Positions 2,329 to 46,791 are shown, counted from the stretch's first letter. The stretch is DNA of 64,000 bases from Candidatus Bathyarchaeum sp. (GCA_026014495.1 JAOZIF010000137.1:5611-69610), one strand, 5' to 3'. Notes: generated from the sequence alone by a model not told the origin. Numbers and translations are program-made.

Positions 2329-2620
2329 ATTTTAATCCTCCAACAGATTGTAATTAACTAAACAAACGGTAGTTTTTAATGTCAACATAGAAAAACGATG
2401 GCATAAAAACAGCTTAATCGTTCAATGCACAAATTGCAAAACAGCTAATTGTTTTAATTATTAATAAAACATTGAAGTTGTAAGTCCCAACTTTCTGTCA
2501 AGTTTTGGTATATTAAGAAAAACTTTGATCAGATGGTTCGGTGCTGACAGATAAAATTTATCTCGCTTTGACTTGTTGACTGTATGAAGTACACTACTTG
2601 ATTTGTAAGAGTTCAGAAAA

Positions 2621-3670: not shown

Positions 3671-3764
3671 TTTTCCAACACCCCAAAAGGGTTAGTTTAA
3701 CAATGAATGTGTCACAGTTTCTCAAAAAATTGTCACATAAGTTGTATTCATTCTAAAGAACAAC

Positions 3765-4448: not shown

Positions 4449-4548
4449 TATTGTTCACCGTATTTCTCAAAAAATCAACGCGGTATACTCGTTTCTTAGT
4501 TAACTTTGTTCTGATGGCAACAATGCTTCAAGGGTTTTGTTTTTAATT

Positions 4549-5475
4549 TCAATTATTTCGTAGTTGGCTGGAAATAAATCCAAACATCCAAGCAGTCATC
4601 TTGAAGCAATAGTGAATGGGCAACAAAAACACATTCTTTTTATTTACTAATCTATAGCCAGTCAAAGAATAAAGAAAACCAGTTATAAAACCTGCAGGAG
4701 GAGACATTCGACTAACAGATAGCGCTTCTTTTGTCTCGGCTTGAAGTGTTTGACAACCTTGCCCGTACCAATAATACTTTTTCCACAAGTCACTGAACGA
4801 TGACATTCCATTGTGCAACTCATAAAAAATGGCGTCATTTAATCTTATTTTCCAGCCAGCATACTTAATTTTGAAGACAACATTCACATCTTCGCCCGCG
4901 CCGGTAAAGCGCTCATCAAAGCCACCTACGTGGTTTAAGGCTACAACACGAAAAGTTGTGCCACCAGTACCAGGTAATTTTTCAGTCTTCCAAATGAAAC
5001 TTCTTGGTTTTCCAAAGTTAGCATGATTAACAATATGGGGTACAAGTTCAAGATTTAAAACAAGATTCTTTGAAACAAGACCAAAAACACCTGCAGTTAT
5101 TGCAACATCAGGGTTTTGTTCTAAGAATTCGACTTGCTTACGTATGTAACTTGTAGTCAGAATTTCATCCGAGTCAACCCATGTTATGTAATCGCCGTCT
5201 GCGTTATTAAGAATTAAATTTCTTGCTGAACCCAAACCCTGCCACTTAGTTTTGAAAACCTTGGTTTGAATGTCCATCTTTGTGACGTAATTAGCCACAA
5301 TTTGCGGTGTGTGATCTTCGCTACCATCGTCAACAAAAATTACTTGCATTTTTTCATGAGAAAAGTCTTGATTAATTATGCTATTAATTGCTTTTGGTAA
5401 AGTATTTTCACAGTTACGTAAGCACATACCTACTGTAACCACTGGCTTCATAGTGGATTCCACTTTTGATTTCAA
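4549..5475 (-). CDS. Family 2 glycosyltransferase
   Basis: 'VTVGMCLRNCENTLPKAINSIINQDF ... VIFVDDGSEDHT ... WVDSDE'. Paralogue of 5981..6892 (shared C-terminal 'FLLP(I/F)HY.FK..AWM.GF'). Confidence 0.8.
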   Translation of the reverse strand: MKSKVESTMKPVVTVGMCLRNCENTLPKAINSIINQDFSHEKMQVIFVDDGSEDHTPQIVANYVTKMDIQTKVFKTKWQGLGSARNLILNNADGDYITWVDSDEILTTSYIRKQVEFLEQNPDVAITAGVFGLVSKNLVLNLELVPHIVNHANFGKPRSFIWKTEKLPGTGGTTFRVVALNHVGGFDERFTGAGEDVNVVFKIKYAGWKIRLNDAIFYELHNGMSSFSDLWKKYYWYGQGCQTLQAETKEALSVSRMSPPAGFITGFLYSLTGYRLVNKKNVFLLPIHYCFKMTAWMFGFISSQLRNN

Positions 5476-5897
5476 CAGCTTGGTGGTTTAAAGAATTTAA
5501 TTGGCTTTGCAGGAACACCAACTGCAAGACAGTTATCGGGTATATCCTTGTTTACCACTGCACCAGCACCAATAACTGCATTTTCACCTATAGTAACGCC
5601 AGGAAGTATAGTGACATTTATTGAGATTCGTGCACCTTTCTTGATTACAACTGGACATATTCCACCCTCATCTGCTTTGTATCCTCTTAACACATTTGAG
5701 TGTGAAAGGATGTAATCAAACCCAGCAATTATAACATCATCACCAATTGTAATGTCCGAAAAGTGGACATCAAGAAAAACATGACTACCAAAAACATATG
5801 GATTACCAATTTTTATGCCTGCTTTCCTATACATAGCTATTCTTAATTTTTCTGAAGGAGAATACATTCCCAAAAAGCGCAGTAACGATTTAAACAT
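5472..5897 (-). CDS. Left-handed beta-helix (hexapeptide repeat) O-/N-acetyltransferase
   Basis: Imperfect hexapeptide repeats ('ITIGDDVIIAG', 'VTILPGVTIGENAVIGAGAVV'). There is a 4-nt stop/start overlap with the downstream GT2. Confidence 0.8.
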   Translation of the reverse strand: MFKSLLRFLGMYSPSEKLRIAMYRKAGIKIGNPYVFGSHVFLDVHFSDITIGDDVIIAGFDYILSHSNVLRGYKADEGGICPVVIKKGARISINVTILPGVTIGENAVIGAGAVVNKDIPDNCLAVGVPAKPIKFFKPPSC

Positions 5898-5980
5898 ACA
5901 AGTTCCTCACAGTTTATTATATGAATCTAAAAACAATATTTATTCTTACTTCCAAAAAGTCGACTAAAAAAGTTCATAAC

Positions 5981-6892
5981 TCAGTTTGATTTTTTATGCC
6001 CATAACCAGTTAAGTGACCCTTCAAGAAACCTGCCATCCAAGCAACCCTTTTGAAAGTGTAATGGAAGGGCAATAGAAAAGAAAACTTCTTGTGAGTTAT
6101 TTTAAAGCCACTCTTACAACGAATTAAACCAGCGACAAAACCAGCCATAGGTGTCATTTTCAAAAGCGATATTGAATGGGCGTCTTTATGAAAGACAAAG
6201 TGACCTCCGTAGCCATACCACATGTATTGTGTCCAAAGGGAAAGAAGTGAATTTCGTGTGAATTCGACAAAAACTTCATCTGTTGACTCCAGTTTCCAAC
6301 CAGTTTTGACTAATCGGGATACTAGTTCGGTATCTTCTGCTGCACCCTTTATGTTAACATCGAAACCTCCACTGTTTCTTACAGCATCAACTCTATGGAT
6401 GGCGCCTTCGGTTCCAGGTAAATAGCCATATGTTGACGATTCTTTTTCTCCGCAACTAGAGTCGACGACATAAACCAGATTTTCCAAGTCAGCAACAACG
6501 CCGTGACCCAGACATAAACCATATTTTCCTGCTGCAACGGCTACACGGGGGTTTTTTTCCATGAATTCAACTTGTCCTCTGGTGTATGTGTTGGATAGAA
6601 CCATGTCTCCGTCTACCCATATTATGTATTTACTTTGGGCTTTGTCAACAACAATCTGCCGTGCAGCGCCTAAACCAGTAATATTGCGGTATATTCGGTA
6701 AGTGATGTCTATATCGGAAAGGTAGTCTTTCACGATTGATAATGTCTGGTCGTTACTGAAGCCTTCAACGACAATTAGTTCAATTAAATGATGAGGAAAG
6801 TCTTGACTGATTATGCTTTGCATTGTCTTTGCAATGGTCTCGTCTACATTCTTTATGCATAGACCAAGTGTGACAATTGGTGAGTTTGTCAA
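5981..6892 (-). CDS. Family 2 glycosyltransferase (paralogue of 4549..5475)
   Basis: 'VTLGLCIKNVDETIAKTMQSIISQDF ... WVDGDM'. Same domain order and C-terminal amphipathic segment as 4549..5475. Confidence 0.8.
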   Translation of the reverse strand: MTNSPIVTLGLCIKNVDETIAKTMQSIISQDFPHHLIELIVVEGFSNDQTLSIVKDYLSDIDITYRIYRNITGLGAARQIVVDKAQSKYIIWVDGDMVLSNTYTRGQVEFMEKNPRVAVAAGKYGLCLGHGVVADLENLVYVVDSSCGEKESSTYGYLPGTEGAIHRVDAVRNSGGFDVNIKGAAEDTELVSRLVKTGWKLESTDEVFVEFTRNSLLSLWTQYMWYGYGGHFVFHKDAHSISLLKMTPMAGFVAGLIRCKSGFKITHKKFSFLLPFHYTFKRVAWMAGFLKGHLTGYGHKKSN

Positions 6893-6956
6893 AGTTTTCA
6901 GTCGTCTCCTACGAATAAAAAATCAGACGGTGAGTTATGTTAAGCGTCTCACTCAT

Positions 6957-8177
6957 TCAGATTAAACCCTTTTCTTTGAGCATGTCTTCAGTTATGAGTG
7001 ACCGAGCCTCTTGACTGGTTTTCCACAGTTTAAATCCACTACTTGTGACAAATGTTGTTAAAGCAGCCAATAGAATACAGTTGTTTTGTATTACTTCGAT
7101 TAACATTGTTCTAGTTTTTCTAATCAGCAATGCTGGACAAAGCATCACCAAAAACGCCGCCAACAATACAGGATATTGCATAAACACAAAAACGGAAATA
7201 ACACCTAGAACGACAAACAGAACAGGATTAAAAAGGTGCAAGAAAAGCTCGGGCACAGCTATTTTCTTAGGAAGCTTCAGTTTTCGGTTAACCAGTAACT
7301 TAAGAGACTTGATCCATAGACGCTGTAATTGGTTTGCACGTCTAATCTTCAAAGTTATCTTGCTTTTCCAGTCTGTTGGAAAAATAGTGTAGAAGCCCAC
7401 TTCAGGAATTAGTAGGCTTCTGCTGTTTCTTTGCACAACATCAAAGGCTGTGCCAGAATCGTCTGTTTCATGATTGAATTCCTGAAGGAATTTGCGTTTA
7501 TAGGCTGCGAATCCGCCTTGAAAAAAGATTGTTGAATGTACTTTTGATTCGCCAATTCGAATTGATTGGACAGTGTTATCAAAAAATTGTTCTCCTACGG
7601 TAACCCATGAGCTTTGAGAGTTAAACAATAGCTCTCTTGCAGTTATTGCACCCACAGTTGGGTCTGATAGGTATGGCAAAGCTTTTATCAATATATCTGA
7701 GTGCAAAAAGCAATCTGCATCGGATACTACTATAACATCACCTGTTGCATGTTTTAGGGCAAAATTTAGAGCTCTTGTTTTTCCTTCCCGTTCAGTTCTG
7801 CTTAATACTTTTATGTCCAAACAATCATTATTGCTTACAAATTCGTTTATTTCATCTATCGTTTTATCGGTTGAAGCGTCATTTACGAGTATGGTCTCAA
7901 ATTTCTTGCTAGGGTAATTAACTTTGCACAGGTTCTCCAACTTGAATCGAATGGTTTTTTCTTCATTACACACAGGCACTATGATACTTATAGACGGATC
8001 ATAGCTTTCAGTCAGCTTCAGATTCCAAGGTTTTGATGATTGACGTCTCATATACAGGTAATATATGCCTGAAAAACCTGAGAAAACGAAGAGTAGCAAA
8101 GCCCAAGCTACAAGCATCAAAATCATAAAAAAAATCACTCTTTTAGAACTCTTCTGAACAAAGAATAATCCATTCAA
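6957..8177 (-). CDS. Membrane-embedded family 2 glycosyltransferase (synthase-type, N- and C-terminal TM helices)
   Basis: N-terminal TM helices, 'ISIIVPVCNEE', 'LVNDASTD', 'VVSDADC', and C-terminal TM helices. The architecture resembles PgaC/cellulose/chitin-synthase-like GT2s. The Q-x-x-R-W motif is not cleanly visible. Confidence 0.7.
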   Translation of the reverse strand: MNGLFFVQKSSKRVIFFMILMLVAWALLLFVFSGFSGIYYLYMRRQSSKPWNLKLTESYDPSISIIVPVCNEEKTIRFKLENLCKVNYPSKKFETILVNDASTDKTIDEINEFVSNNDCLDIKVLSRTEREGKTRALNFALKHATGDVIVVSDADCFLHSDILIKALPYLSDPTVGAITARELLFNSQSSWVTVGEQFFDNTVQSIRIGESKVHSTIFFQGGFAAYKRKFLQEFNHETDDSGTAFDVVQRNSRSLLIPEVGFYTIFPTDWKSKITLKIRRANQLQRLWIKSLKLLVNRKLKLPKKIAVPELFLHLFNPVLFVVLGVISVFVFMQYPVLLAAFLVMLCPALLIRKTRTMLIEVIQNNCILLAALTTFVTSSGFKLWKTSQEARSLITEDMLKEKGLI

Positions 8178-8186
8178 AAAATGGAC

Positions 8187-9098
8187 TCAGATATTTTTGT
8201 TCAAGCGCTCATCGAACAGCTTGAATGTTTCACGTGCGTGGCTCTCTTTTGACACTCCTGCGACTACGCCTTTCAAATTGCTAAGATTTGCTAAGTAGGC
8301 TACAGCTTCAGGTGGTTTGAAGTAACCTGCTGCTAGCACACTTATAGCTAATACTATTGGGCTAGAAATATTAGACAAGGTGTTCTCAAATTCGGTCCTT
8401 GATGGGTTCATTTGGAAACCTGCCTTGTTGAAAGGTGTTGCAATCAAAGTTTGGTCCAGATTAATATTCCATTCATTGAATTTTCTTACGAAAAGTGGAA
8501 GATTGCGAGTGTTAAATCCTGGAGTTATGCCTTTTTTAGAAAGAAATGAGGTGAAAGATTTGAATAACCAATCAAAGTTTAAAGCTAAACCCATGTCTGT
8601 CAATACTTCATGGAGTAAAACTGATGACAGGTTTGCTTTTTTGCCAGCTGCCGCTTTTATTTTGTTAATTTCGTATGAAACATACGTTTTCAAGAGACTT
8701 TCAGGTTTCATCCTAAAAGCTCCGTTTAAGCCTCCAAAAATTGCCTGAACATCACCTGACAGTGCCATCTGTTTCACAACGTTCTTGGCTAAGCCAGGAG
8801 TTCCAGTCTGAGTTGCAATTCTAACGTATTCAAAGACGTAAGGGACTATTGCATGAAGCTCTAGTTTATCAATTTTCTCTCGTTCTCGTAAGGTTTTTAG
8901 AATTGTTAAGGTTAGGTCGCTCACAGAAAACATGAAACCTGTTGCACCGTTCTCAACAGCAGTTAGGATCAAGTCTGCCTTATCTGCTGCGGAAACATCG
9001 CCGTCGGCTCTACTTCGAGCCTGTTCTTGAGAGAGATGGCTGATTCCATGAAATGGATTGTCTCCTACTAGGAGCATGGTTCGCACTTTTTTATTCAT
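8187..9098 (-). CDS. Conserved-looking hypothetical protein (soluble, unknown fold)
   Basis: 303-aa ORF with ordinary composition. Its start overlaps the stop of the upstream oxidoreductase by 1 nt. I recognise no motif. Confidence 0.45.
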   Translation of the reverse strand: MNKKVRTMLLVGDNPFHGISHLSQEQARSRADGDVSAADKADLILTAVENGATGFMFSVSDLTLTILKTLREREKIDKLELHAIVPYVFEYVRIATQTGTPGLAKNVVKQMALSGDVQAIFGGLNGAFRMKPESLLKTYVSYEINKIKAAAGKKANLSSVLLHEVLTDMGLALNFDWLFKSFTSFLSKKGITPGFNTRNLPLFVRKFNEWNINLDQTLIATPFNKAGFQMNPSRTEFENTLSNISSPIVLAISVLAAGYFKPPEAVAYLANLSNLKGVVAGVSKESHARETFKLFDERLNKNI

Positions 9099-10108
9099 TA
9101 TTGTTCACTTCTTGTTTTTACTTGTTCAATTATGTAGTCAACTTTCGAGGATGTCTCAAAGTTTGGTTCACAATGCTTGTTTTCTAACAACGAATTAACG
9201 AAATGTTGGTTTTCTCTGAAGTATTCTGCATCACCTATCGAAAAATACACATTGTCATTAAGGTCATGTCTGTACCACTTCTGTTGGGTACCATCACTTG
9301 AGGTCAAGAGTAATCTGTCGTCGTTTACATCTATTGTTCCATCAGAGCATTTGATGAACAAACCAAATTCTGGCATTCGATAATTTGGCATTTGTTGGGA
9401 AACATTGATCTGTCCGGATAACCCTGCAGAATTAGTAACTGTGAAAGAAACTGATAGTTCAGAACCAGTTTCATTTCTTGTGCTGGACAAAACATTTTGA
9501 ACATCGAAATCGCCAAGTATCCAGAGTGATAAGTCTATTATGTGACAACCGATGTCTCTGAGCGCGCCACCACGTGATGCAGAAGACATTGACTCCTTTG
9601 TTAGTCCAAGAAAATCTGAAGAATATGCATAAGCCTTGAAAGATTTTATTTTGCCCAGATTTCCTTGTTGTAATAATTCTTTAGCTTTCCCAAAAACAAC
9701 AGAAAACCGTTTCATGTAACCAACCATGGTGATGCTGTCTGAGTTCTTGGCAAGTTCACACATTTCTTTAGCTTGCTCATAGTTGGTGGCAAGTGCCTTT
9801 TCCACGAACAAGTGACGAGCTATTTCTTTTTCATACAAAGTCTTTACTATTGATGAATGTGAAGAGATAGGAGTCGTCACGTAAGCTACGTCAAGGTCTA
9901 ACCCTGCGAGTTTATCAATGTCATTAACAACAAGAACTCCTGTTGGTGAAAAGATTTTTTTATAAAGCCTATTCAGCAATTTGCTTTTGTCACATAATGC
10001 TACTAGTTCGACGTTAGAGAAAACATTCAAAAGGCTTGAATGCAACAGGCCCATTTTTCCTAACCCGATAACAGCAACTCTAAGTTTTTGTTTTTTCAAA
10101 GTATACAC
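9098..10108 (-). CDS. Gfo/Idh/MocA-family NAD(P)-dependent sugar oxidoreductase
   Basis: N-terminal Rossmann 'LRVAVIGLGKMGLLH', an 'EKAL' motif, and a C-terminal alpha/beta dimerisation domain. Confidence 0.8.
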   Translation of the reverse strand: MYTLKKQKLRVAVIGLGKMGLLHSSLLNVFSNVELVALCDKSKLLNRLYKKIFSPTGVLVVNDIDKLAGLDLDVAYVTTPISSHSSIVKTLYEKEIARHLFVEKALATNYEQAKEMCELAKNSDSITMVGYMKRFSVVFGKAKELLQQGNLGKIKSFKAYAYSSDFLGLTKESMSSASRGGALRDIGCHIIDLSLWILGDFDVQNVLSSTRNETGSELSVSFTVTNSAGLSGQINVSQQMPNYRMPEFGLFIKCSDGTIDVNDDRLLLTSSDGTQQKWYRHDLNDNVYFSIGDAEYFRENQHFVNSLLENKHCEPNFETSSKVDYIIEQVKTRSEQ

Positions 10109-10227
10109 AACCTAATTTAAGTCTGTTTTTGACTAACCATTTGTTTTGAAATATCAAATCAAAACTGTTAAGCGAATAGCATCAGCTGTAAACATTAATA
10201 AATAAAGCAAAATAGAGGAGAACGTAA

Positions 10228-10974
10228 TTAAATGTTCATTGCGCCTCTGAAAAGAGTTTTCAAGATGCTAAATCCATCTCTAAAAGTGTTAAGATTAGAA
10301 ATACCATAACGTCTTGCGCGCTCAATACTTGGAATTTCATGAACAGTTAGTCCGAGCAATTTCGATTTTATACAAATCTCTGTTTCAATTTCGAAATTCT
10401 CACTCTCTAGAACAGGATTAAGACAGCGTAATGCGTCTTTTTTGAACGCCATATAGCCATAGCATAAATCGGAATAGTTAGTAAGAAACATGAAGTTTGA
10501 AATCCCTGTTAGAATCCTGTTGCCAACACGCCTTAATGGAGTTAAATCTTCAGAGCCACCGCAAGGCAAAAACCTCGAACCCTTTACAACATCTGCGCCC
10601 AGCTCTACAGCTTCAGCGAATCGAAATATCTCTTTTGGGTCCATTGACCCGTCAGCATCCAACATTACAGTAATGTCACTGGTACGCATACTTTCTTGGA
10701 AAGCTTCACGCAATGCACCACCTTTACCTGATCCGTTCTGAAGAATGACTTTGGCTCCGAGCGTCTTAGCAATTTCAACAGTCTTGTCTTTTGAATGCCC
10801 ATCTACAACTAAGATGTCGGCACAGCCTATTTGTTTTAAACTATTGATTATATCGTATATGTTTTTTTCTTCATTTAGCGTAGGAATAATGACTGTTACT
10901 CGATTATTCCCAAACTGTGAATCATTCATCCGCATACTCACCATCATTCTTCTGAACAAAACAGTTATTTTCAT
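10228..10974 (-). CDS. Family 2 glycosyltransferase, polyprenyl-phosphate sugar synthase (Dpm1-like) type
   Basis: 'VTVIIPTLNEEKNI', 'VVDGHSKDKT', 'MLDADGS'. The true start may be an internal Met (MRMNDSQ). Confidence 0.75.
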   Translation of the reverse strand: MKITVLFRRMMVSMRMNDSQFGNNRVTVIIPTLNEEKNIYDIINSLKQIGCADILVVDGHSKDKTVEIAKTLGAKVILQNGSGKGGALREAFQESMRTSDITVMLDADGSMDPKEIFRFAEAVELGADVVKGSRFLPCGGSEDLTPLRRVGNRILTGISNFMFLTNYSDLCYGYMAFKKDALRCLNPVLESENFEIETEICIKSKLLGLTVHEIPSIERARRYGISNLNTFRDGFSILKTLFRGAMNI

Positions 10975-11105: not shown

Positions 11106-11792
11106 TTAGCTTTTGTCAATGTAAAATCTTTCAGTATTCTTAAAGTATCTATCAACATTTTCCACAACAGGCTTTTTGGAATTGTTCAAAACCACTGACA
11201 ACTCACTAGTAAACTGCTTAACAGCTTTCTTTTTAAGAGAAAGATACTCCGAAATATCGACGTCAGCAATGCAATCTTTGTACACGTCAATCAATCGTTC
11301 AATGCGGGGTCCAAAATTCAAAAATCTATGCATCACAGAATATTGATACCTAATAGACGTTAACTTCAGATTTTGAAGGCATCTCCTAATAATTCGATTC
11401 GCAGCGCGATGGTCAGGATGAGAATCACGCATAAACGGAAAATAGACCTCAACTGGAGAGTGTTTTTTGAGTATTTCAGTTATTTTTTGTTCAGCAACAG
11501 TTTCATGTTCTTTAAGCATTCTATCTTCAAAATCGAGAAACACTAAGTTTTCAACAGGTACACCTAATACAGTTGTAGCATCAATTACTTCTTTCTTTCT
11601 GATTTTGACTATCGCATCGGGAGTTATATCCGAGTTTAGATCTAAACAGTTAGAAAATGCATGCCTCCCATCGGTTAATAAAACGATGTAGACTTGATAG
11701 TTTTCACTAAGTTTTTTAGCGATTGTTCCACCACAACCCAAAGTCTCGTCATCTGGATGCGGAGAAAACACTACTATTGGTTTATCCATCAA
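11106..11792 (-). CDS. LmbE/PIG-L family N-acetylglucosaminyl deacetylase
   Basis: Hallmark 'VVFSPHPDDETLGCGGTI' plus downstream 'HPDH' zinc-binding motif. Confidence 0.85.
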   Translation of the reverse strand: MMDKPIVVFSPHPDDETLGCGGTIAKKLSENYQVYIVLLTDGRHAFSNCLDLNSDITPDAIVKIRKKEVIDATTVLGVPVENLVFLDFEDRMLKEHETVAEQKITEILKKHSPVEVYFPFMRDSHPDHRAANRIIRRCLQNLKLTSIRYQYSVMHRFLNFGPRIERLIDVYKDCIADVDISEYLSLKKKAVKQFTSELSVVLNNSKKPVVENVDRYFKNTERFYIDKS

Positions 11793-11856
11793 ACAACACT
11801 CTCATTTACGCATTAGGTAACCAAAGAAAAATAACAATTATTCATAAACACAAATT

Positions 11857-12978
11857 TTAATTTGATAAAATGTCTTTTTTCAAAGAAAAACTAAGTTTCT
11901 TTGCCAAATTATCAACAGTGCTACTACAGGTAATCCAGTTGTAAAACTTACTATGCAAACTATTGCGCACTAACCTAACTTCAAAATTCTTTCTGTAGGT
12001 GTGCGTCCATCTTTTTTTGTACGCTTCAGCACCTCTCATAAGATCATATTCCTTAATTCCATTTTCTATACAGCGCTTCAAAATGAGCATTATTGTGAGA
12101 CTCCCAGCAGAATAAACAGAATACTCAGGAAGAAAACCCGAGAGATAATAATACGTCTTTTCAGCATAATCAAAGGAATAGTGACCTGCAATGGGTTCAT
12201 CGTTAGCCATTAAGAAATAAAGACTCAACCAGTTTTTATCATTAAAACGTTCAGCGACATCTACATGAAAATCACGAAAAGCTCCATCATGAAAAGCCCC
12301 TGACAATCCTTCCGAGTTCCATTTTTTTTGATGTATCTCCATGAAAACATTTATAGCTTCATTAACTGAGAGTCCAACCTCGTCAAACTTTTTAAAATCT
12401 ATTTTATGATTTTGCTTAATTCGTCGTAGTTTTTTGTTCAGGTCCTGTCGCATGTTGCAGCTCAACCCTTTCATAAAACTTTCAAACGAATCAGGCAAAG
12501 TAATATACGGACACACATTGTAAACTCTTTCTTGAACATCTAAATTGAACGGAACATTGGAAAAGAGGTTGCCAGAATAATTTTTGCTTTCAGGAATTTC
12601 CTTAAGCTCAATCCAATCCCAGTCTGCAACGACATTCACCAAATAATCCATTATAATATTTAGACACTTTTCTTTTTGTTCAGCAATAATAAAATTGTTA
12701 TAATCAGAATGGCGGGTTCCCACAAATTCTACTTTTTTAACTGAACCCAAACCAGGCATCTTATACTTCGATAACATTAGTGGAGCAATAGCACAAACCT
12801 TGTCTTCATCTTCAACAGTTAAAAGCAAAAGGCGCCTGTTAGACCCGAAATGCTTCCACCAAGTAGACAACCAGGCCCAAGTCAAGAAAACGTTGTTACC
12901 AAAAAGGTTGCTTTCAAGAACAGTGTCCCATGTTTCCTTAACACCATCAAAGTTATCCACTTCGTTTAGTTTCAACAT
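11857..12978 (-). CDS. Fem/CelD-type GNAT-fold protein (Acetyltransf_6 / BioF2-like family)
   Basis: 373 aa. N-terminal 'FLTWAWLSTWWKHFG' and C-terminal 'YYLSGF...YSAGSL....LKRCIENGIKEYDLMRGAEAYK' match the CelD/FemAB-related GNAT pattern. Confidence 0.65.
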   Translation of the reverse strand: MLKLNEVDNFDGVKETWDTVLESNLFGNNVFLTWAWLSTWWKHFGSNRRLLLLTVEDEDKVCAIAPLMLSKYKMPGLGSVKKVEFVGTRHSDYNNFIIAEQKEKCLNIIMDYLVNVVADWDWIELKEIPESKNYSGNLFSNVPFNLDVQERVYNVCPYITLPDSFESFMKGLSCNMRQDLNKKLRRIKQNHKIDFKKFDEVGLSVNEAINVFMEIHQKKWNSEGLSGAFHDGAFRDFHVDVAERFNDKNWLSLYFLMANDEPIAGHYSFDYAEKTYYYLSGFLPEYSVYSAGSLTIMLILKRCIENGIKEYDLMRGAEAYKKRWTHTYRKNFEVRLVRNSLHSKFYNWITCSSTVDNLAKKLSFSLKKDILSN

Positions 12979-13015
12979 TAATATCCCTCACGCTTAAGTC
13001 AGCTAACAGGAGACA

Positions 13016-13897
13016 TCATTTTTCTCTGAAAATACGCAGATAAGCAGAAGCAGCCATTGCACGGAGATCGTCTTTCAAAACTTTCTTAGGAAAAGCCTGT
13101 TTGAAGTAAGAAAAATCTCCAACAGGAGAAAAAGTTGAGTCCCAAACACCATCACGGGAAGCCACAGTAATTTGTTTCACTGAACGAGTTGAAATACCCA
13201 TAAGTTTTGAGGCAGCAATATCTGCTACAAGAGGGTTGTCACAAGACATCACCAAGTTCAATTGTTTAGCGTATTTTCCATGTGCAACTAGACCATCGAC
13301 TACAACCAAATCAGTTTTGATTTGCTTGTTTATGAAAACTATTGCTTCGTCCAATACTTTGTGATACTTGAACTTTTGTGGATAAGCGTTACATCCATAA
13401 AAATTCTTTAGTGCACACGTAATTTTCACACCGTGCATATACTTTAGTTTAGGAACGTTTACCACAAGATCGGCTTCATAAAATAGTTCAGGTATATGGA
13501 ACGTGAATAGTGAACGACCGATTCTAGCGTCGATGATACGGCATTTCTTTTCGGTTAAATTGACTAAGTTTACGTCTTTTTCTTTAGCCATCTTGTCATA
13601 TTCAAGCATCTTGAAGGCATGTTTGCATTTCATGGCGGAGGCGTCTGATTCTACGACGAAAATTTCAGAAGTTCGGGCAAAATTTTCTCTAAAAACGTCA
13701 ATCAGAGCAGCAACGAATAATGGATCAGTGACTTCTCCAGTTGAAGGGTGATAATAGTAACACATATTTGGTTTTATTACGATTTTATCAGCGTTCCTGT
13801 TAAAGTTGAATCCAATTAAATCTAGAGATTCTTTGATTGCAGCTTTCAATGTATCTGGATTACAGTTCTCAGTACGAACAAAACTTACAGTGCTCAA
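13016..13897 (-). CDS. DUF362 domain protein
   Basis: 'KIVIKPNMCYYYHPSTGEVTDP' and the overall ~290-aa layout resemble DUF362. Function unknown. Confidence 0.55.
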   Translation of the reverse strand: MSTVSFVRTENCNPDTLKAAIKESLDLIGFNFNRNADKIVIKPNMCYYYHPSTGEVTDPLFVAALIDVFRENFARTSEIFVVESDASAMKCKHAFKMLEYDKMAKEKDVNLVNLTEKKCRIIDARIGRSLFTFHIPELFYEADLVVNVPKLKYMHGVKITCALKNFYGCNAYPQKFKYHKVLDEAIVFINKQIKTDLVVVDGLVAHGKYAKQLNLVMSCDNPLVADIAASKLMGISTRSVKQITVASRDGVWDSTFSPVGDFSYFKQAFPKKVLKDDLRAMAASAYLRIFREK

Positions 13898-13912
13898 GTC
13901 TTTTCCTCCTTT

Positions 13913-14914
13913 TTAGGTGTGCAGTCCTGAATTCTTCATCGCGTTTTTGTATGCAGAATCAATTACTTTCAAGCCATACAAGCCAGCATCTCCTGAAGGC
14001 TGAGGCTGCTCATCTTTCTGTAAACTGCTAACAAAATGTTCTAGTTCCAAGTAGTTAGAATCCTTTTTATTTAACCCAAATTTGCGTGCAATACCGTTCC
14101 AGAAGATTTTTGAAGTGCTCTGAGGAGAAATTTGAACCAGCATATTTTGGGCAGTCCCACAAACTTGAACCGATTGCAAAAAGTCTGTTGAGAACCATCC
14201 TACTTTAGCAGTTGCTACAGGACCGTCCTTAAACTTTAGCACACAAGTCGCAGCATCCTCCAACTCGAGGTTAAACATGTGTTCTAAAAAACATTCTACA
14301 TGAACGACTTCACCGAAATACCAGCTTAACAAGTCAATCAGATGTGAACCAAGGTCTAGTAAAACACCGCCTCCAGATAGTTCTTTGTCAAGCCACCATG
14401 ACGGAACTTTAACAGGACCAACATGGTCACTTCTTGGAGAGAATGGACCACCACTGACATTGGTGACCTCCGCCAATTTAATGCTGCCAAACAAACCATC
14501 TTTTATTCCATCATATAGGTTTGAAAGAATGGGGTTAAATCTCATATCATATCCCATCATCAGTTTAACACCGTTCTTTCTGACAGCTGACAGAATTTCC
14601 TTCCCTTCATCAACAGTTCTAGCTAGCGGTTTCTCCAGAAGAATGGCTTTTCCAGCTTCTGCCGCTTTCTCTGCACCATCACGATGAAGAAAGTTGGGCA
14701 AACTAACGACAACTGCGTCAACAGCGTCATTTTTCAAAAGGTCATCATAGTTAGCGTAAACGTCTTTGATACCCATTCCTTTTGCATACCTTCGGGCTTT
14801 TTGAGATAAATCTGCCACGGCCACGGTTTTTGCGCCCTCTAGCCGTAGAGAATTACGAAGACTTACTTTGCCTTGTTCTCCAAGCCCAATTAATCCTAAA
14901 TTTACCTGTTTCAT
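13913..14914 (-). CDS. Gfo/Idh/MocA-family NAD(P)-dependent sugar oxidoreductase
   Basis: 'VNLGLIGLGEQG' Rossmann motif, an 'EKPLA' motif, and a C-terminal oxidoreductase domain. Confidence 0.8.
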   Translation of the reverse strand: MKQVNLGLIGLGEQGKVSLRNSLRLEGAKTVAVADLSQKARRYAKGMGIKDVYANYDDLLKNDAVDAVVVSLPNFLHRDGAEKAAEAGKAILLEKPLARTVDEGKEILSAVRKNGVKLMMGYDMRFNPILSNLYDGIKDGLFGSIKLAEVTNVSGGPFSPRSDHVGPVKVPSWWLDKELSGGGVLLDLGSHLIDLLSWYFGEVVHVECFLEHMFNLELEDAATCVLKFKDGPVATAKVGWFSTDFLQSVQVCGTAQNMLVQISPQSTSKIFWNGIARKFGLNKKDSNYLELEHFVSSLQKDEQPQPSGDAGLYGLKVIDSAYKNAMKNSGLHT

Positions 14915-14939
14915 AATCTATCTCTCATTTTATAAAAAA

Positions 14940-15980
14940 TTACAGAAATACTGCAAGGAATTTTTCGCATAATGATAACACAAATTTGTTAAATTTTGGC
15001 ATATAGACTTTGTTATAAAGATACACTTTGTTAAGTTGTCCTTTCCATTCTCTTTTCCATCTCCATAAACCCCAGCCTTCAGAGTTTTCATTGGGCAGCG
15101 GTTCACGGACGTGCCCCATATGATACCAAGAGAATCCATTGTTGCAAGCCCATTTCATTGTTTCCCAGTGTAGCAGATCGTTGGGTCTTACGTGCCAACT
15201 TTCTTCCCGAGAACCTGTACCTAATGCATAAGCAGTCTTGCCATGAAGTACGACAAAAACTCCAGCAACAGGTTGACCCTCAAAAACAGTTAAGAATATT
15301 TTTAGATTGTTACGTTTTCCAAAGATTTTGCTGAGAGATTGAAAATATATAAAAGGGTATGTTTTGAAGCCAACTCTTTTAGCTGAAATCGCGTGTAACT
15401 CAAAAAAGGAAGCGAGGGCATCATAGTTGTTACATTGAACTACTTTGGCACCTTGTTTTTGTGCTTTTTTGATGTTTCTTCTTTTGTTATGTGTAATTGT
15501 TTTCCAAAGTTCGGTTTCAGATTTCCGAAGGTCTACTTTGTAAACGTTGAATACTGTGTTAACTGTATAACCCATATTTTCTAAAGTCTGATTTGTTTCT
15601 GGCGCATAGATGTTAGCTTCAGAGACCCTGTTCTGGATTGCATGTTTTTCTAATAGCCCCATTAACTTTTCCAGAACTTCTTTCCTGTTGTCTGTCCCTA
15701 CAACTGGTCCGTAACCATAAACGCCGCCAACTTCTGTGCGGTCACCAAACCCGAACCGCTTGTTGTATCGAGCTTGAATTAAACCTGCAAGATTATCATC
15801 GTTTATTGCTAAAAACCTTAGAATTTTCGCGTGGGGATTAGATTCCTTTATGGCTTCGCCGTATTCAAATGACTGTTGAAGATTACCTAAAGTGTAGTCC
15901 TGCAAGAACTTTTCCCACATGCCAGATGTAGGGTGGTCGATAATTGTATATTTGTCCATAATACTAGTCTCTTGCAACAT
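14940..15980 (-). CDS. FemAB-family (aminoacyl-tRNA-dependent peptidyltransferase-like) protein
   Basis: 'LQQSFEYGEAIK' (FLQS..W-type N-terminus), 'HNKRRNIKKAQKQGAKV', 'GKTAYALGTGSRE....RPNDLLHWETMKWACNNGFSWYHMG', and 'GLWRWKREWKG' (cf. FK..FG of FemX/FemA). Confidence 0.7.
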   Translation of the reverse strand: MLQETSIMDKYTIIDHPTSGMWEKFLQDYTLGNLQQSFEYGEAIKESNPHAKILRFLAINDDNLAGLIQARYNKRFGFGDRTEVGGVYGYGPVVGTDNRKEVLEKLMGLLEKHAIQNRVSEANIYAPETNQTLENMGYTVNTVFNVYKVDLRKSETELWKTITHNKRRNIKKAQKQGAKVVQCNNYDALASFFELHAISAKRVGFKTYPFIYFQSLSKIFGKRNNLKIFLTVFEGQPVAGVFVVLHGKTAYALGTGSREESWHVRPNDLLHWETMKWACNNGFSWYHMGHVREPLPNENSEGWGLWRWKREWKGQLNKVYLYNKVYMPKFNKFVLSLCEKFLAVFL

Positions 15981-15999: not shown

Positions 16000-17238
16000 T
16001 CAAAAACTTACACCTGGACGACTCCAAGGATAGACTTTTTTCTTTATGATTTTTGCCAATGCGACTGGAAACAAAGCCGAATTGAACAAAAATGGAAGTG
16101 GATCATCTAATTCAAACAAATCATAAAAGAGTCCGGGTTCATAAAACTTGAGCCAGCTAGCTAATACTTTCAGGTTGTTCTGGTTTTTAAAGATGTGATT
16201 TGTAAAGCCGTTTTTAAGCATGCTAAAGAGGTATAGTAGGTCTTGATCAAAGTATCTGCCTTTAACGCCCACCTTATAGTTGAAGACTCCCTTAACGTCA
16301 CCGTCCATAGCAATTTGGTAAAGTAAATACGGAAAGTCCACTCCAGCTTTGACTGCAACAGATAGTGATCCCCAGAAACGAGGGTTAATCTCCAGTAGTT
16401 TTGGAATATTATCTCGGGAGTCAACTCTAAACTCAAGTTCTGCAATTCCGTGCCAATCTAACGCCTTAAGCAAAGTTTCACTGTATTTTCTTAGATTATT
16501 AGTAAGCGGAACAGTTTCGCGATAACAGCTGTTGCCACCTTCAGGAGGCCATGCTCGAGTTACTTTGATACAACAAAATGCTCGAGGTTTACCGTTGTTG
16601 TATACAGTCGCCACTGAAAAGTTCGTTCCCGGAACATATTCTTGAATTAAAGGATACGGAAAATATTGATGAATACTGTTATAAGTTGCGATAAGCTCTG
16701 CAGGTGAATTGACAAGACCCCCTCTTCTGTGATAAGCACGACCATTTCCCCAAACCATAGACCATCGCGGTTTGACGATACACGGATAGGTTATTTCTTG
16801 CGAGATTTTGTTCAGTTTAGCGGTTGAATTATCTACAAAAAATGTTTGTGGAATGGGTACGCTGTGTTCAGTGGCTAATTTCATTGTTGATCGTTTGTCA
16901 AAGCACTTGAGAATTGAATCATGACGGGCAATAGGAAGGTTCACATAAGGACTTATTCGATCTCTGTTTTTGGAGATTGGTAAAAGAGACCATTCAAAGA
17001 TGGGAAAAAGAAGATCAAACTTTGTTTTTTTAACGATTTTTTCTACTGCACAAGCATATTCTTTTTCAAAACTCGTAGATGGAACCAGCACTTGTCTTTT
17101 GCAATATTTTGAAAACCGAGAAACAGATAAAGAATAACTCGACATAATAGCTGTGTCTACTTTTCGTTTTCCTAGAGATCTTAAGATGGGAAGGACAACC
17201 GGATTATGTCCCTCGGCAATTAAAACACCATTACCCAA
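16000..17238 (-). CDS. ATP-grasp family carboxylate-amine ligase
   Basis: 'PCIVKPR', 'LIQEYVPG', and 'HGIAELEFRVDSRDNIPKLLEINPRFWGSL', typical of ATP-grasp_4-type ligases. Confidence 0.75.
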   Translation of the reverse strand: MGNGVLIAEGHNPVVLPILRSLGKRKVDTAIMSSYSLSVSRFSKYCKRQVLVPSTSFEKEYACAVEKIVKKTKFDLLFPIFEWSLLPISKNRDRISPYVNLPIARHDSILKCFDKRSTMKLATEHSVPIPQTFFVDNSTAKLNKISQEITYPCIVKPRWSMVWGNGRAYHRRGGLVNSPAELIATYNSIHQYFPYPLIQEYVPGTNFSVATVYNNGKPRAFCCIKVTRAWPPEGGNSCYRETVPLTNNLRKYSETLLKALDWHGIAELEFRVDSRDNIPKLLEINPRFWGSLSVAVKAGVDFPYLLYQIAMDGDVKGVFNYKVGVKGRYFDQDLLYLFSMLKNGFTNHIFKNQNNLKVLASWLKFYEPGLFYDLFELDDPLPFLFNSALFPVALAKIIKKKVYPWSRPGVSF

Positions 17239-17282: not shown

Positions 17283-18653
17283 TCAAATTGTTTTATCTTT
17301 ATAAAGGACATCTTCAGGAGTTTCTCGTTCTCGAATCAGTTTGACATTACCGTTTGAATCTAAATTAACTGCACCAGGACGGGGATGAAGAAATTGTGTG
17401 GATCGCGAAATTGTGTATGCACCGCAATCAGAAATTGAAAGTATGTCGCCTTCAGAAACTTTTGGAAGAAAAGTTTTGAGATTAATGAAATCTTCAACAT
17501 ATAGTAGAGGACCAACTACATTAATTTCCTCTTCTGGTTGTTTGGATGCTTTGTTTGCAACACTAATTTTTCGCTGCTCTATTGCACCAAAACGAGGAAG
17601 CAGATTTGTTCCAGCATCAACCATTACCCATTTGTAGCCGCCAGCATTTTTGACATGATCAATACGTGTAAGTAAGATTCCAGACGCTGAAGTGATAAAT
17701 CTCCCTGGTTCAACAATAATTGTTGGTTCAGGTAAATCTTCTAGACCTTGCTTGATTTCGTTTACAATAGACTTGGCAACAGATTCTATGTTTGTAATGT
17801 TACGGTTTTCAGCTAATTTTGATTTGAGACCGATTTTTCGTCTCAGAAAGTCTTTGATTAAATCATTGTTTCCAATAAAACGAGCCCCACCGGGATTGAA
17901 TCCACCGCCTATGTTGAGGTATTTAAGTTCAACTCCAAAGTTTCTGTAGAGTTCGCGCATCATAGGTAGAAGTACTTTTGTTGATACCCTATAGGGATGA
18001 GCCATTATTGCTTCAATTTTCAAGTTTTTGAGTTTTGTTGCCTGTTGAACGGCTGAATATGCTTCTTTTATAGAAAAACCGAATCTACTTCCAAGATTGC
18101 AATAAGCAGCGGTAACAAGCTTGTTTAAAGAGAGATACTTGAATATACCGGGTTCTTTGAAGGGATTTATTCTGAAACCGATAGCCTGTTTAACGCCCAA
18201 CTCTCCTGCTACAGCATTCACTCTGTTGAGTTCAGTAAGAGATTCGACATTTATGAGTCGGATTTGCTTGCTGATAGCTGTCTTTAGTGTTTCTTTGGAT
18301 TTCATGGGACCATCAAAGATTATGTTCTCGCCACCAAAGCCAGCCCGTAAAGCCACATGTATATCAAGTTCGGAAGCAACTTCGGCGTATGCTCCGTTCT
18401 CTTTAAGGGTTTGGCAAATAGCCAAATTGTTATTGGTTTTGATTGAATAACAAACCATTACTTTGGGATATAAAGCAGAAAATGCACTGGAGATACGATT
18501 AAAGTTCTCTATAAGCTTAACTTCGTCAAAGACAAAAAGTGGTGTATCATATTTTTCGCATAGTTCAACCAAGTTTACTCCGTGTAGAGTCAAATGACCC
18601 TTTTTGTCGATTCCAAAGCTATTTTCGTGAATCAAGTTTTTATTAATCTCCAA
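17283..18653 (-). CDS. PLP-dependent decarboxylase, Orn/DAP/Arg decarboxylase family 2 (LysA-like)
   Basis: PLP-lysine context 'CYSIKTNNN', then 'NIGGGF', 'EPGRFI' and 'SDCGAYT'. Confidence 0.8.
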   Translation of the reverse strand: MEINKNLIHENSFGIDKKGHLTLHGVNLVELCEKYDTPLFVFDEVKLIENFNRISSAFSALYPKVMVCYSIKTNNNLAICQTLKENGAYAEVASELDIHVALRAGFGGENIIFDGPMKSKETLKTAISKQIRLINVESLTELNRVNAVAGELGVKQAIGFRINPFKEPGIFKYLSLNKLVTAAYCNLGSRFGFSIKEAYSAVQQATKLKNLKIEAIMAHPYRVSTKVLLPMMRELYRNFGVELKYLNIGGGFNPGGARFIGNNDLIKDFLRRKIGLKSKLAENRNITNIESVAKSIVNEIKQGLEDLPEPTIIVEPGRFITSASGILLTRIDHVKNAGGYKWVMVDAGTNLLPRFGAIEQRKISVANKASKQPEEEINVVGPLLYVEDFINLKTFLPKVSEGDILSISDCGAYTISRSTQFLHPRPGAVNLDSNGNVKLIRERETPEDVLYKDKTI

Positions 18654-18695: not shown

Positions 18696-19832
18696 TTACA
18701 CAAGTATTTCAGGCATGGCTTTCAAAAATCGATCGTTCATATTGGGAAGGCCTATGGTAACGCGTAGACAGTGACCGATAACGGGTAATTCGCCAAGATT
18801 CTTTATTATTATGCCTTTATCTAAAAGTTCACGGTAAACTTCCTCGGTGTTTTTGTTAGTTTTAAATGTAACAAAGTTTGCTTTTGAATCCAAAACTTTT
18901 ATTCCGTTAATAACACGCAATTTACTAAGAAGTCTCTCACGCTCAGTGTTAACTAAATTTGTCCATCTTTGCACAACTTCAATGTTATCCAACAGCCTTT
19001 GGACGTACCTAGCAGTAAGTGTGCTAACAGTATAAGGAAGTGTCTCTGAAAGGACTGAAGCAAAATCCTTGTGCGCAGTAGCGTACCCAAATCGTAGTCC
19101 CGCCAAACCAAACGCTTTGGAAAATGTCCGCACTACAACTATATTCTTTTTATTAATAGCCAATGGACAAACAGAATACGTTCCAAACTCCACGTAAGCT
19201 TCATCCACTAAGACAACCGCAGAAGATGCATTAGCCAAAGCTTCAATTGCAGCCCAATCAAACTGATTTCCAGTAGGATTATTCGGTGAACAAACAAAGA
19301 TTAACTTGGTCTTATTCGTCACCTTCTTAAGAACATCATCAACATCAATAGACAAATCGTCTCTAAGGGGCACTGAAACCAGCTTAGCTCCACTTAACTC
19401 CACCCTCTTTTTATACATGAAGAAACTGGGCGAAATTGAGATGGCTTCATCACCTTTTTCCAAGAAAAGCTGGATAATAAAATCAATTAGTTGTTCGCTA
19501 CCACTGCACGCCACAACACATTCAGAAGGCACACCTACATATTTTCCTAAGGCAGTTTTAAGCTCAACCATTGCGTTTGAATCATAAAATCTCAAATCAA
19601 CATTTTTAATAACCTCTAGAAAAACGCCTTTAAGAAAACTAGAGTCAACAAAGAAGTTTTCGTTAGCATCTAACTTTAGAATCTGAGAAGAACAAATGCC
19701 AAGCTTTGAGGCAAGCTGGGTAACACCAGTAGAAGAATTAACATAACCGAGAAGTGATCCATCAAAGGATTGCAAAAGTTCAAGCTTTTTTTCTAACCAA
19801 TTCAAATTCGGTTTCACTTCCATAATTTTCAA
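18696..19832 (-). CDS. Class I/II PLP aminotransferase, HisC/CobD-like
   Basis: 'LDANENFF', 'SPNNPTGN', and 'RTFSKAFGLAGLRFGY' (PLP lysine). Confidence 0.8.
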   Translation of the reverse strand: MKIMEVKPNLNWLEKKLELLQSFDGSLLGYVNSSTGVTQLASKLGICSSQILKLDANENFFVDSSFLKGVFLEVIKNVDLRFYDSNAMVELKTALGKYVGVPSECVVACSGSEQLIDFIIQLFLEKGDEAISISPSFFMYKKRVELSGAKLVSVPLRDDLSIDVDDVLKKVTNKTKLIFVCSPNNPTGNQFDWAAIEALANASSAVVLVDEAYVEFGTYSVCPLAINKKNIVVVRTFSKAFGLAGLRFGYATAHKDFASVLSETLPYTVSTLTARYVQRLLDNIEVVQRWTNLVNTERERLLSKLRVINGIKVLDSKANFVTFKTNKNTEEVYRELLDKGIIIKNLGELPVIGHCLRVTIGLPNMNDRFLKAMPEILV

Positions 19833-19856: not shown

Positions 19857-19930
19857 TGGAGCCAGGGGTTGGAGTTTCACCAACGTGAGCGGCTCTGCAA
19901 ACCGCCGCCTGATTACTCAGCCACCCTGGC
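19857..19930 (-). tRNA. Atypical tRNA with anticodon GCA (Cys-type), encoded CCA, non-consensus D- and T-loops
   Basis: Hand-folded minus-strand sequence: GCCAGGG-TG-GCTG-AGTAATC-AGGC-G-GCGGT-TTGCAGA-GCCGC-TCAC-GTTGG-TGAAACT-CCAAC-CCCTGGC-T-CCA. It has a perfect 7-bp acceptor stem, 5-bp anticodon and T stems, and U33, G37 and U73. The D-loop lacks GG, and the T-loop reads TGAAACT instead of TTCRANY. The gene is a GC-rich island in AT-rich DNA. Confidence 0.7.
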
Positions 19931-45090: not shown

Positions 45091-45118
45091 GGATTGTCCC
45101 TCACAGACCTAAAAAAGG

Positions 45119-45865: not shown

Positions 45866-45911
45866 AGTGTCACCTCCTTATTCTACGTGAACAGCTATGT
45901 TTACTGCAGAG

Positions 45912-46565: not shown

Positions 46566-46791
46566 TCTAAATTCCTCACGCAAGCATGTGGGTTTAAAGC
46601 GTATTATTACGTTGTTAATATGCAACGAACATTTACATATATATCAGACACAATGTGCCTGTTCTAGCGCCGTTTTGAGCTTTAAAGCTAAGATTGAAAG
46701 AGAGATGGGGCGCATATACGAAAATAGACAGTTTTATGTAAGTTACACTCAAAAGCGCGAAGATTTAACTGTTAAAAGCAAGGTGAATTGA

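Follow-up and report, generated by a model that had tools for sequence, protein, structure and literature searches.

We analysed a 64-kb stretch of DNA, hereafter the window, from a metagenome-assembled genome of Candidatus Bathyarchaeum sp. (Candidatus Bathyarchaeota; protein MCW4016289.1). In this window, a gene for a cysteine transfer RNA, tRNA-Cys(GCA), is located at the head of an operon encoding two Fem-type proteins, which we named Fem1 and Fem2, and a de-N-acetylase of the PIG-L/LmbE family (PIG-L). The same operon also encodes an aminotransferase (AT), a decarboxylase (DC), an ATP-grasp ligase, a sugar oxidoreductase of the GFO/IDH/MocA family (GFO1) and a DUF362 protein. The reading that we favour, and to which we give a chance just short of even, is that these genes constitute a conserved glycan-tailoring module responsible for the tRNA-Cys-dependent aminoacylation of a surface glycan, for which the tRNA encoded in the operon provides a dedicated Cys-tRNA donor.

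An earlier note on positions 11106-15980 had proposed a parallel with the synthesis of mycothiol and bacillithiol: the deacetylase would expose the amine of an amino sugar, to which a Fem-type enzyme would transfer cysteine from Cys-tRNA. The observation behind this proposal is partly confirmed by our analysis and its interpretation is partly supported, in that the combination of a Fem enzyme with tRNA-Cys is strengthened and the thiol analogy is weakened. A literature search on tRNA-Cys of Bathyarchaeota or on archaeal Fem/glycan systems returned nothing relevant.

The cluster tRNA-Cys and its linkage to Fem1

The tRNA-Cys(GCA) gene is the only tRNA gene present in the window (Table 1). As the earlier note had stated, it heads the same minus-strand string of genes as the Fem and deacetylase genes, but it is located ~3.9 kb outside the interval that the note described. 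The tRNA has U73, an encoded CCA and a standard 7-nt anticodon loop, and its minimum-energy fold is the cloverleaf (z = -2.9). U73 and the GCA anticodon are identity elements for CysRS. The elbow, however, is degenerate: the D-loop (AGUAAUC) lacks G18G19, and in the T-loop (UGAAACU) U55 is replaced by G and C56 by A. U55, C56, G18 and G19 are conserved features of tRNAs in every domain; no modification is more universally conserved than Psi55, and Cm56 is characteristic of archaea (PMC7912444). The start codon of AT is located ~24-34 nt beyond the 3' end of the tRNA in the window, and this distance is 22-34 nt at eight distinct tRNA-AT junctions. TATA-like runs directly follow the tRNA in some loci.

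The Fem1 alignment was used to find 80 metagenome loci, and others were reached via homologues of Fem1 or Fem2. For the annotation of all these loci, which we numbered with the prefix L, the window proteins were compared by phmmer, and tRNA genes were sought using ARAGORN and a covariance model of this tRNA. The module recurs in dozens of related loci, and the gene combination is therefore not due to chance. Two layouts were observed: AT-(MT)-DC-ATP-grasp-Fem1-GFO-DUF362-Fem2-PIG-L, which is that of the window, and AT-(MT)-DC-Fem2-Fem1-PIG-L. PIG-L belongs to the constant part of the module. A tRNA-Cys(GCA) gene on the same strand heads the module in the window and in L003, L008, L018, L024, L027/L029, L046, L055 and L056, and it does so wherever the upstream DNA is present. 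Where the sequence extends 6 kb or more upstream of Fem1, the tRNA is found in 5/5 carriers of the module. The gene located 5' of the tRNA varies between loci (DUF1616, Unk303, GT2d or MT). Neither ARAGORN nor the covariance model detected another credible tRNA in 845 kb of related loci. A scan of genome contigs with one protein yielded a single weak locus of 3 kb (L005).

These loci also show that the tRNA and the deacetylase are associated with different Fem genes. In L026, L034 and L038, the tRNA immediately precedes Fem1 or MT-Fem1, and AT, DC, Fem2 and PIG-L are absent. In L077, a tRNA-Cys gene is located 67 nt after a Fem1-epimerase pair that belongs to a Fem1 clade otherwise without a tRNA. 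Fem2 and PIG-L are present together in 11/11 loci, and they persist in four loci in which Fem1, AT and DC have been lost (L086, L088, L091 and L093). The L088 tRNA has a T-stem mismatch and a 3' end reading UUCA; that of L086, which was missed by ARAGORN, has mismatches at two stem positions, carries U37 and lacks CCA; and that of L091 is a 38-bit relic whose acceptor, anticodon and T stems are broken, in a locus without any Fem gene at the Fem1 position. Hence, there is a double dissociation, with the tRNA tracking Fem1 and PIG-L tracking Fem2. The recurrent linkage thus bears out the tie between tRNA-Cys and a Fem enzyme that had been proposed before, but not the proposed chain in which that enzyme transfers Cys to the very amine released by the deacetylase. 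Because the tRNA decays where Fem1, AT and DC have been lost, and no organism can do without a tRNA-Cys, the cluster copy would be dispensable there, and we infer that another tRNA-Cys is encoded elsewhere in the genomes of L086, L088 and L091.

Some further features of these loci were observed. In L086 and L088 (contigs of 1.7 Mb and 0.9 Mb), a gene for a FemAB_like (PF04339)/Acetyltransf_6 protein occupies the place of Fem1, flanked by the genes for ATP-grasp and GFO (L086:6836-7960 and L088:6813-7943); phmmer gave no match between the L086 protein and Fem1 or Fem2. At these two loci, a Fem2-like gene and a gene for a protein of ~220-230 aa are found in place of AT and DC. The loci sampled via Fem2 also include L089, L090, L092, L093 and L094, which say little on the tRNA because their contexts differ. 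L008 contains, besides its intact tRNA-Cys gene (L008:2821-2894), a decayed 5' partial copy corresponding to positions 1 to ~48 (L008:124-181, plus strand), in which the anticodon region has mutated to CUACAAA. The partial copy is located ~2.7 kb upstream of the intact gene, and the two bracket a GFO2-Unk303 pair; it looks like the scar of a cassette insertion or of recombination at the tRNA gene.

We then compared the linked tRNA-Cys sequences with each other. In the 15 copies, 98.7% of the cells are paired and compensatory changes occur in 10/20 pairs, values matched by 0/500 shuffles, in an alignment that had been fitted to the model. These compensatory changes maintain the stems, which rules out that the cluster tRNA is a decaying pseudogene everywhere. 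G1-C72, U73 and GCA are invariant among 13 aligned copies. The decayed copies of L086 and L088 keep U73 and GCA and depart only downstream of U73, where the encoded CCA is lost. T-loop positions 54-56 read UGA, UGC or UUA in 11/15 copies, and the canonical UUC in the other four. Close relatives can differ in this respect, as the T-loop is UGAGAAU in L026 and UUCAAAU in L034. The possibility of an integrative element at the tRNA was ruled out, since the 3' half of the tRNA is not repeated in the window and there is no integrase nearby. The 5' pattern of the Bathyarchaeial tRNA-Cys was absent from the viral contigs scanned.

Two copies that score under the Rfam gathering score have anticodon loops of unusual size in which GCA is kept. 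That of L055 (768-842) has 8 nt (UAAGCAUG, without U33), and that of L018 (161-234) has 6 nt (CUGCAG); Fem1 is split or frameshifted on the L018 contig, where an assembly error is possible. A 3' CCA is encoded in 9/11 of the copies with a non-canonical T-loop, the exceptions being the decayed L086 and L088 copies, and it is also missing from 2/4 of the copies with a canonical T-loop (L024 and L034). In this small sample, the encoded CCA is possibly a compensation for weak recognition of the broken elbow by the CCA-adding enzyme.

Judged by its sequence, the cluster tRNA-Cys has the hallmarks of a tRNA that has been released from translation. Since the CysRS elements and the cloverleaf have been kept while the canonical elbow has been lost, it is probably a dedicated, poorly translating ("non-proteogenic") donor, by analogy with the tRNAGly species on which FmhB, FemA and FemB draw in staphylococci.

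Several results indicate the class to which Fem1 belongs. The protein is above the gathering score of the FemAB family (Table 1). When a family profile of 30 homologues was compared with the PDB, the matches were Staphylococcus aureus FemX (6snr, E=1.4e-20) and Weissella viridescens FemX (FemX_Wv, ~1e-12). Residues W308-K309 are invariant in the 30 homologues and form part of the motif WGLWRWKREW. The Fem1 sequence GLWRWKrEW aligns with GLWAFKKVW of S. aureus FemX, which places W308-K309 opposite the F-K of the catalytic motif. K309 would be the equivalent of Lys305 of FemX_Wv. In FemX, catalysis depends chiefly on the Lys of the aromatic-Lys motif, which is conserved in DhpH-C and Ate1 (PMC12945691, PMC9351520).

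The AlphaFold2 model of Fem1 (pLDDT 92.5) consists of two tandem GNAT-like domains. According to Foldseek, its TM score is 0.80 to FemX 6snr and 0.75 to FemX_Wv; FemX is followed in the ranking by Sbb17/Sba18, and then by FemA and the MprF aminoacyl-phosphatidylglycerol synthases. The top 11-14 matches are all aminoacyl-tRNA-dependent transferases, and the tandem GNATs that use acetyl-CoA rank below them. Sbb17/Sba18 are themselves aminoacyl-tRNA-dependent and have been crystallised with the amino sugar streptothrisamine. Fem1 is not an equivalog of FemX, whose acceptor is a peptidoglycan precursor (NF047883, 46.9 versus a cut-off of 500). The Fem1 subfamily proper is small, with ~20 clusters (50% identity) scoring better than 1e-50, and is surrounded by a superfamily of >17,000 representatives. 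The predicted structure and the sequence comparisons together place Fem1 in the aminoacyl-tRNA-dependent Fem class, in agreement with the earlier note, and its activity would accordingly be expected to require a charged tRNA.

Fem2, the PIG-L deacetylase and the glycan-gene setting

The second Fem-type protein is more divergent. The only family recognized in the Fem2 sequence is PF13480 (Acetyltransf_6), and sequence searches gave no match in the PDB or in NCBIfam. Nevertheless, its AlphaFold2 model (pLDDT 89.7) has the two-domain Fem fold, and the closest folds are FemX_Wv (TM 0.62-0.70) and then Sbb17/Sba18, not the acetyl-CoA GNATs. K321, part of an aromatic-Lys motif (Y320-K321), and W324 are invariant. 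Two two-domain proteins of Fem/GNAT fold are thus indeed encoded here, as noted previously. A role similar to that of MshD, the two-domain GNAT of the mycothiol pathway to which the earlier note had drawn a parallel, was ruled out for Fem2, because it has no NCBIfam match and its best folds are FemX and Sbb17.

The identification of the deacetylase stands: the translation contains FSPHPDDETLG and RDSHPDHRAAN, and therefore both metal-site motifs, PHPDDE and HPDH. The parallel with mycothiol and bacillithiol does not, as the protein remains below the equivalog cut-offs of BshB1 (TIGR04001, 77.9 versus 182.5), BshB2 (67.2 versus 195.25), MshB (25.5 versus 224.35) and Mca (32.5 versus 277.15). 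In the PDB, it matches 2ixd, the LmbE-related Bacillus cereus protein BcZBP/BC1534 (1.3e-15), archaeal diacetylchitobiose deacetylases (~1e-13) and BshB1 (6p2t, 8e-11); no PDB match to MshB was obtained. By these comparisons, the deacetylase is a generic PIG-L member that is about equally close to LmbE-related, chitobiose-deacetylase and BshB1 structures.

Every gene between positions 19832 and 196 is on the minus strand, in a single string headed by the tRNA-Cys gene. In transcriptional order, the tRNA is followed by AT, DC, ATP-grasp, Fem1, GFO1, DUF362, Fem2 and PIG-L, and then by glycan genes (Table 1). The genes named in the earlier note are real, but those for GFO1 and DUF362, which lie within its interval, and those for ATP-grasp, DC and AT had been overlooked.

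Table 1. The tRNA gene and the protein-coding genes of the minus-strand string in the window, listed from its 5' end
Feature	Position	Strand	Evidence
tRNA-Cys(GCA)	19857-19930	-	ARAGORN; Rfam tRNA 43.6 bits
HisC-like class I/II pyridoxal-phosphate (PLP) aminotransferase (AT)	18696-19832	-	PF00155 183 bits; TIGR01141 298.8 vs cut-off 276.6
LysA/diaminopimelate (DAP)-decarboxylase-like PLP decarboxylase (DC)	17283-18653	-	PF02784 + PF00278
ATP-grasp carboxylate-amine ligase	16000-17238	-	PF15632, PF02655
Fem1, FemX-type two-domain transferase	14940-15980	-	PF02388 80.1 bits vs gathering cut-off 24; PF13480 71.2 bits
GFO1, GFO/IDH/MocA sugar oxidoreductase	13913-14914	-	PF01408, PF22725
DUF362 protein	13016-13897	-	PF04015 113 bits
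Fem2, Acetyltransf_6 (CelD/BcsL-type)	11857-12978	-	PF13480 108.9 bits
PIG-L/LmbE metal-dependent de-N-acetylase	11106-11792	-	PF02585 100.4 bits vs cut-off 28.2
Downstream same-strand glycan cluster	196-10974	-	Pfam/NCBIfam scans

Among the other enzymes encoded in the operon, DC and GFO1 resemble known families without reaching their equivalog cut-offs. DC scores 263.9 with TIGR01048 (lysA), under the cut-off of 297.9, and has a weak match to the exosortase-associated decarboxylase family TIGR03099 (142 versus 478.45); on the Fem1 side, there is a similarly weak match to the exosortase-associated FemAB family TIGR03019 (66.2 versus 260.35). GFO1 resembles UDP-N-acetylglucosamine (UDP-GlcNAc) 3-dehydrogenase (NF040723, 145 bits, below the cut-off of 450). 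Across the loci, the ATP-grasp gene is restricted to one clade of the module. The GFO-DUF362 pair recurs in related loci, with DUF362 as the constant partner of GFO. Pairs of GFO with a partner gene are present at 13016-14914 and 8187-10108 in the window and also in L001, L003, L086, L088, L089 and L093, and they are often duplicated inside one glycan locus. In the second pair of the window (8187-10108), the partner is a 303-aa protein without a Pfam match (Unk303). The frequent duplication suggests that the GFO pairs are two-protein sugar-modifying units.

The gene content surrounding the module is that of a glycan locus. Region 196-10974 encodes an AglJ-like dolichyl-phosphate glycosyltransferase, the second GFO with its 303-aa partner, four GT2 enzymes, a hexapeptide acetyltransferase, a methyltransferase and a DUF2206 membrane protein, and additional genes for glycosyltransferases and polytopic membrane proteins are found up to ~38.9 kb in the window. 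The module is surrounded by >10 glycosyltransferases, including the AglJ-like dolichyl-phosphate transferase, and by polytopic membrane proteins. From these annotations, the setting is a surface-glycan island of ~39 kb and not a small-thiol pathway. No Mur genes were found in the window. The remainder of the window contains housekeeping genes, such as uvrABC, others and a Cdv division cluster (43016-46625, minus strand) encoding a Vps4-like AAA ATPase with a MIT domain, a 189-aa open reading frame (ORF), CdvA and an ESCRT-III/Snf7-like protein. Within the glycan island, a 1023-aa ORF without a Pfam match is present on the opposite strand (25623-28694, plus strand; local G+C 0.44). It may encode a surface protein, of the S-layer or the sheath, to which the glycan is attached. 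Bathyarchaeum tardum, a cultivated relative whose genome is closed, has an S-layer and an outer sheath (PMC10477458).

Alternative explanations and a possible mechanism

Genes for tRNAs often flank variable islands. The tRNA-Cys could therefore be a bystander, that is, an ordinary chromosomal tRNA-Cys gene that anchors a hypervariable glycan island and whose adjacency to the Fem genes is inherited, with the Fem proteins using other aminoacyl-tRNAs (Gly, Ala or Ser). We consider this unlikely, although a number of observations fit it and weigh against a dedicated donor. The tRNA is preceded by a recurrent HTH_45-DUF1616 frame, and the genes located 3' of it vary in the manner of an O-antigen locus. 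The decayed partial tRNA of L008 flanks an inserted GFO2-Unk303 cassette, which shows that recombination takes place at the tRNA, as it would at the anchor of an island. The four linked tRNAs with canonical T-loops (L024, L027, L034 and L077) could be plain housekeeping genes. Many Fem1 homologues have no linked tRNA; these include L001, L006, L013, L028, L063 and L092, and the whole "type 2" clade of Fem1 except L077. Moreover, all loci are from one archaeal class, and shared synteny inflates the apparent association. Two other points weigh against the module as we propose it, rather than for a bystander: L034 has Fem1 and the tRNA but no PIG-L, so the deacetylase is not needed for the Fem1 step, and the ATP-grasp enzyme encoded in the operon might attach an amino acid independently of tRNA. 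On the other hand, a tRNA-Cys that is the sole one serving translation should keep G18G19, U55 and C56 (PMC7912444). Such a tRNA should neither acquire anticodon loops of 6 or 8 nt, as in L018 and L055, nor become a relic, as in L086 and L091. Glycan genes flank the tRNA on both sides in L008, L024, L026, L034, L046 and L056, which positions it inside the cluster and not at its edge. Finally, the tRNA stays beside Fem1 in three gene orders, including that of L077, a member of the otherwise tRNA-less clade.

It is also conceivable that no tRNA is involved at all. The Fem proteins would then be CelD/BcsL-type N-acyltransferases acting on acyl-CoA or another activated donor, and the ATP-grasp enzyme would attach an amino acid that AT and DC process, as in butirosin- or exosortase-type systems. 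Among the ORFs of the window that were scanned against Pfam or NCBIfam, none encodes a ligase homologous to MshC/BshC, as the earlier note had remarked, but the operon does contain the ATP-grasp carboxylate-amine ligase, and the lack of an MshC/BshC ligase hence does not force a tRNA route. Databases label many of the homologues "CelD/BcsL family acetyltransferase", Fem2 is recognized by PF13480 only and has no PDB match by sequence, ATP-grasp adjoins the PLP decarboxylase, and there is the weak likeness to the exosortase-associated FemAB and decarboxylase families. Still, we regard this scenario as quite improbable. The nearest solved structures of Fem1 are exclusively aminoacyl-tRNA-dependent enzymes, with the acetyl-CoA tandem GNATs lower in the ranking, and the aromatic-Lys pair is invariant in Fem1 (W308-K309), as is K321 in Fem2. 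The larger clade of the module lacks ATP-grasp and still keeps the tRNA, AT, DC, Fem2, Fem1 and PIG-L, and the intergenic gaps of the operon are too short to leave room for a carrier-protein gene. As to the product, the earlier note had left the choice between a soluble low-molecular-weight Cys-aminosugar thiol, analogous to mycothiol or bacillithiol, and a thiol-bearing glycan. Deacetylase, transferases and tRNA-Cys are all present, and enzymes of the BshB type (TIGR04001; 2ixd and 6p2t) are among the closest named relatives of the deacetylase. However, all the cut-offs for thiol-pathway equivalogs were failed, and the archaeal chitobiose deacetylases match as well as BshB. The gene content varies among close relatives as in a surface-antigen locus and unlike that of a core redox-buffer pathway, and the operon is full of genes for dolichyl-phosphate/GT2 glycosyltransferases and polytopic membrane proteins. 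This context makes decoration of a glycan far likelier, and a soluble thiol very improbable.

In the mechanism that we propose for the glycan-tailoring module, PIG-L would unmask the amine of an amino sugar. Fem2 would probably acylate this deacetylated amine, because PIG-L travels with Fem2, and the tRNA with Fem1, across the loci. Fem1 would then add Cys onto the first residue or onto another amine, and its donor would most likely be Cys-tRNA, formed by charging the tRNA-Cys(GCA) whose gene heads the operon. In this way, the two Fem-fold transferases may build an aminoacyl, possibly dipeptidyl, substituent on a glycan or its precursor, with the AT, DC, ATP-grasp, GFO and DUF362 proteins tailoring the sugar or the side chain.

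A more specific version of this proposal is possible, although we think it less likely than not. In this version, the cluster gene is a second, elbow-dismantled tRNA-Cys that is reserved as the cysteinyl donor of a Fem-type transferase, next to another one used for translation; it would be the first non-proteogenic tRNA in archaea and outside staphylococci, and the surface would display N-cysteinyl amino sugars with free thiols. If the tRNA is charged via SepRS, the transferred residue could be O-phosphoserine instead. Enzymes acting on phosphate esters of amino compounds are known in the HisC-like PLP family, and we speculate that the HisC-like and DAP-decarboxylase-like enzymes might subsequently remodel the side chain. 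If the reading that we favour is right, the diversion of a dedicated tRNA from the ribosome to a Fem transferase would cease to be peculiar to staphylococci; archaea would have evolved it independently, using another amino acid and a glycan as the acceptor. It would also predict thiol-bearing aminoacylated surface glycans in a highly abundant group of sediment archaea, which bears on metal binding, redox interactions and cross-linking of the sheath. A broken-elbow tRNA gene adjoining a Fem-fold gene would provide a rule for searching for similar systems. The closed genome of the cultivated Bathyarchaeum tardum makes the prediction directly testable (PMC10477458).

Comparison with known systems

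The deacetylase shares its family, its metal-binding motifs and E-values of 1e-15 to 1e-13 with 2ixd and the archaeal diacetylchitobiose deacetylase. In contrast to these PIG-L enzymes acting on GlcNAc, it is locked to Fem2 in a biosynthetic operon and not part of chitin catabolism. In the synthesis of mycothiol and bacillithiol, the deacetylase acts first, and Cys is then attached to the freed amine. A PIG-L/LmbE deacetylase and a two-domain GNAT-like protein are what the module has in common with these pathways (MshA-D and BshA-C). It differs from them in having no MshB, BshB or Mca equivalog and no MshC/BshC-type ligase, in that Fem2 is not MshD-like, and in its location in a glycan island.

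The exosortase A/PEP-CTERM exopolysaccharide loci also combine a FemAB-family protein and a DAP-decarboxylase-like PLP enzyme in a polysaccharide locus. Unlike the module, they are bacterial and are not known to include a linked tRNA, and the scores obtained here for the corresponding equivalogs are far under the cut-offs. The exosortase-type loci and the archaeal module may share a mechanism. Separately, L001/L002 encode at 2259-3071 a Polysacc_deac_1+DUF3473 deacetylase, a type found in exosortase A/PEP-CTERM loci.

Sbb17/Sba18 are of a type in which a Fem-fold enzyme moves an amino acid from aminoacyl-tRNA to the amine of an amino sugar (Maruyama 2016, as cited in PMC12945691). The Fem1 model and the structures of Sbb17/Sba18 bound to streptothrisamine have a target-normalised TM score of 0.81, at an identity of only 13-14%. 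Unlike the module, Sbb17/Sba18 are bacterial enzymes of secondary metabolism that use Gly-tRNA from the translational pool and have no dedicated tRNA gene.

Fem-type enzymes paired with a tRNA of their own were previously known only for the glycine tRNAs of staphylococcal wall synthesis. In the staphylococcal non-proteogenic tRNAGly, the TTC of the T-loop is replaced by TGC or TGT, and the D and T regions are altered; these tRNAs bind EF-Tu poorly and are preferred by FmhB, FemA and FemB (PMC7826273). The tRNAGly set is the one known precedent for tRNAs in which TTC is replaced, and according to a 2020 study such tRNAs were "so far only detected in S. aureus and S. epidermidis" (PMC7826273). 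The module would share with FmhB, FemA and FemB the coupling of Fem-fold enzymes to a T-loop-altered tRNA that a synthetase can read. Fem1 (346 aa, the size of FemX_Wv) lacks the coiled-coil arm of the staphylococcal Fem proteins. The archaeon has no murein, and the proposed acceptor is a surface glycan or its precursor instead of lipid II. Finally, the tRNA is a tRNA-Cys and not a tRNAGly, and its gene physically heads the operon that encodes the enzymes.

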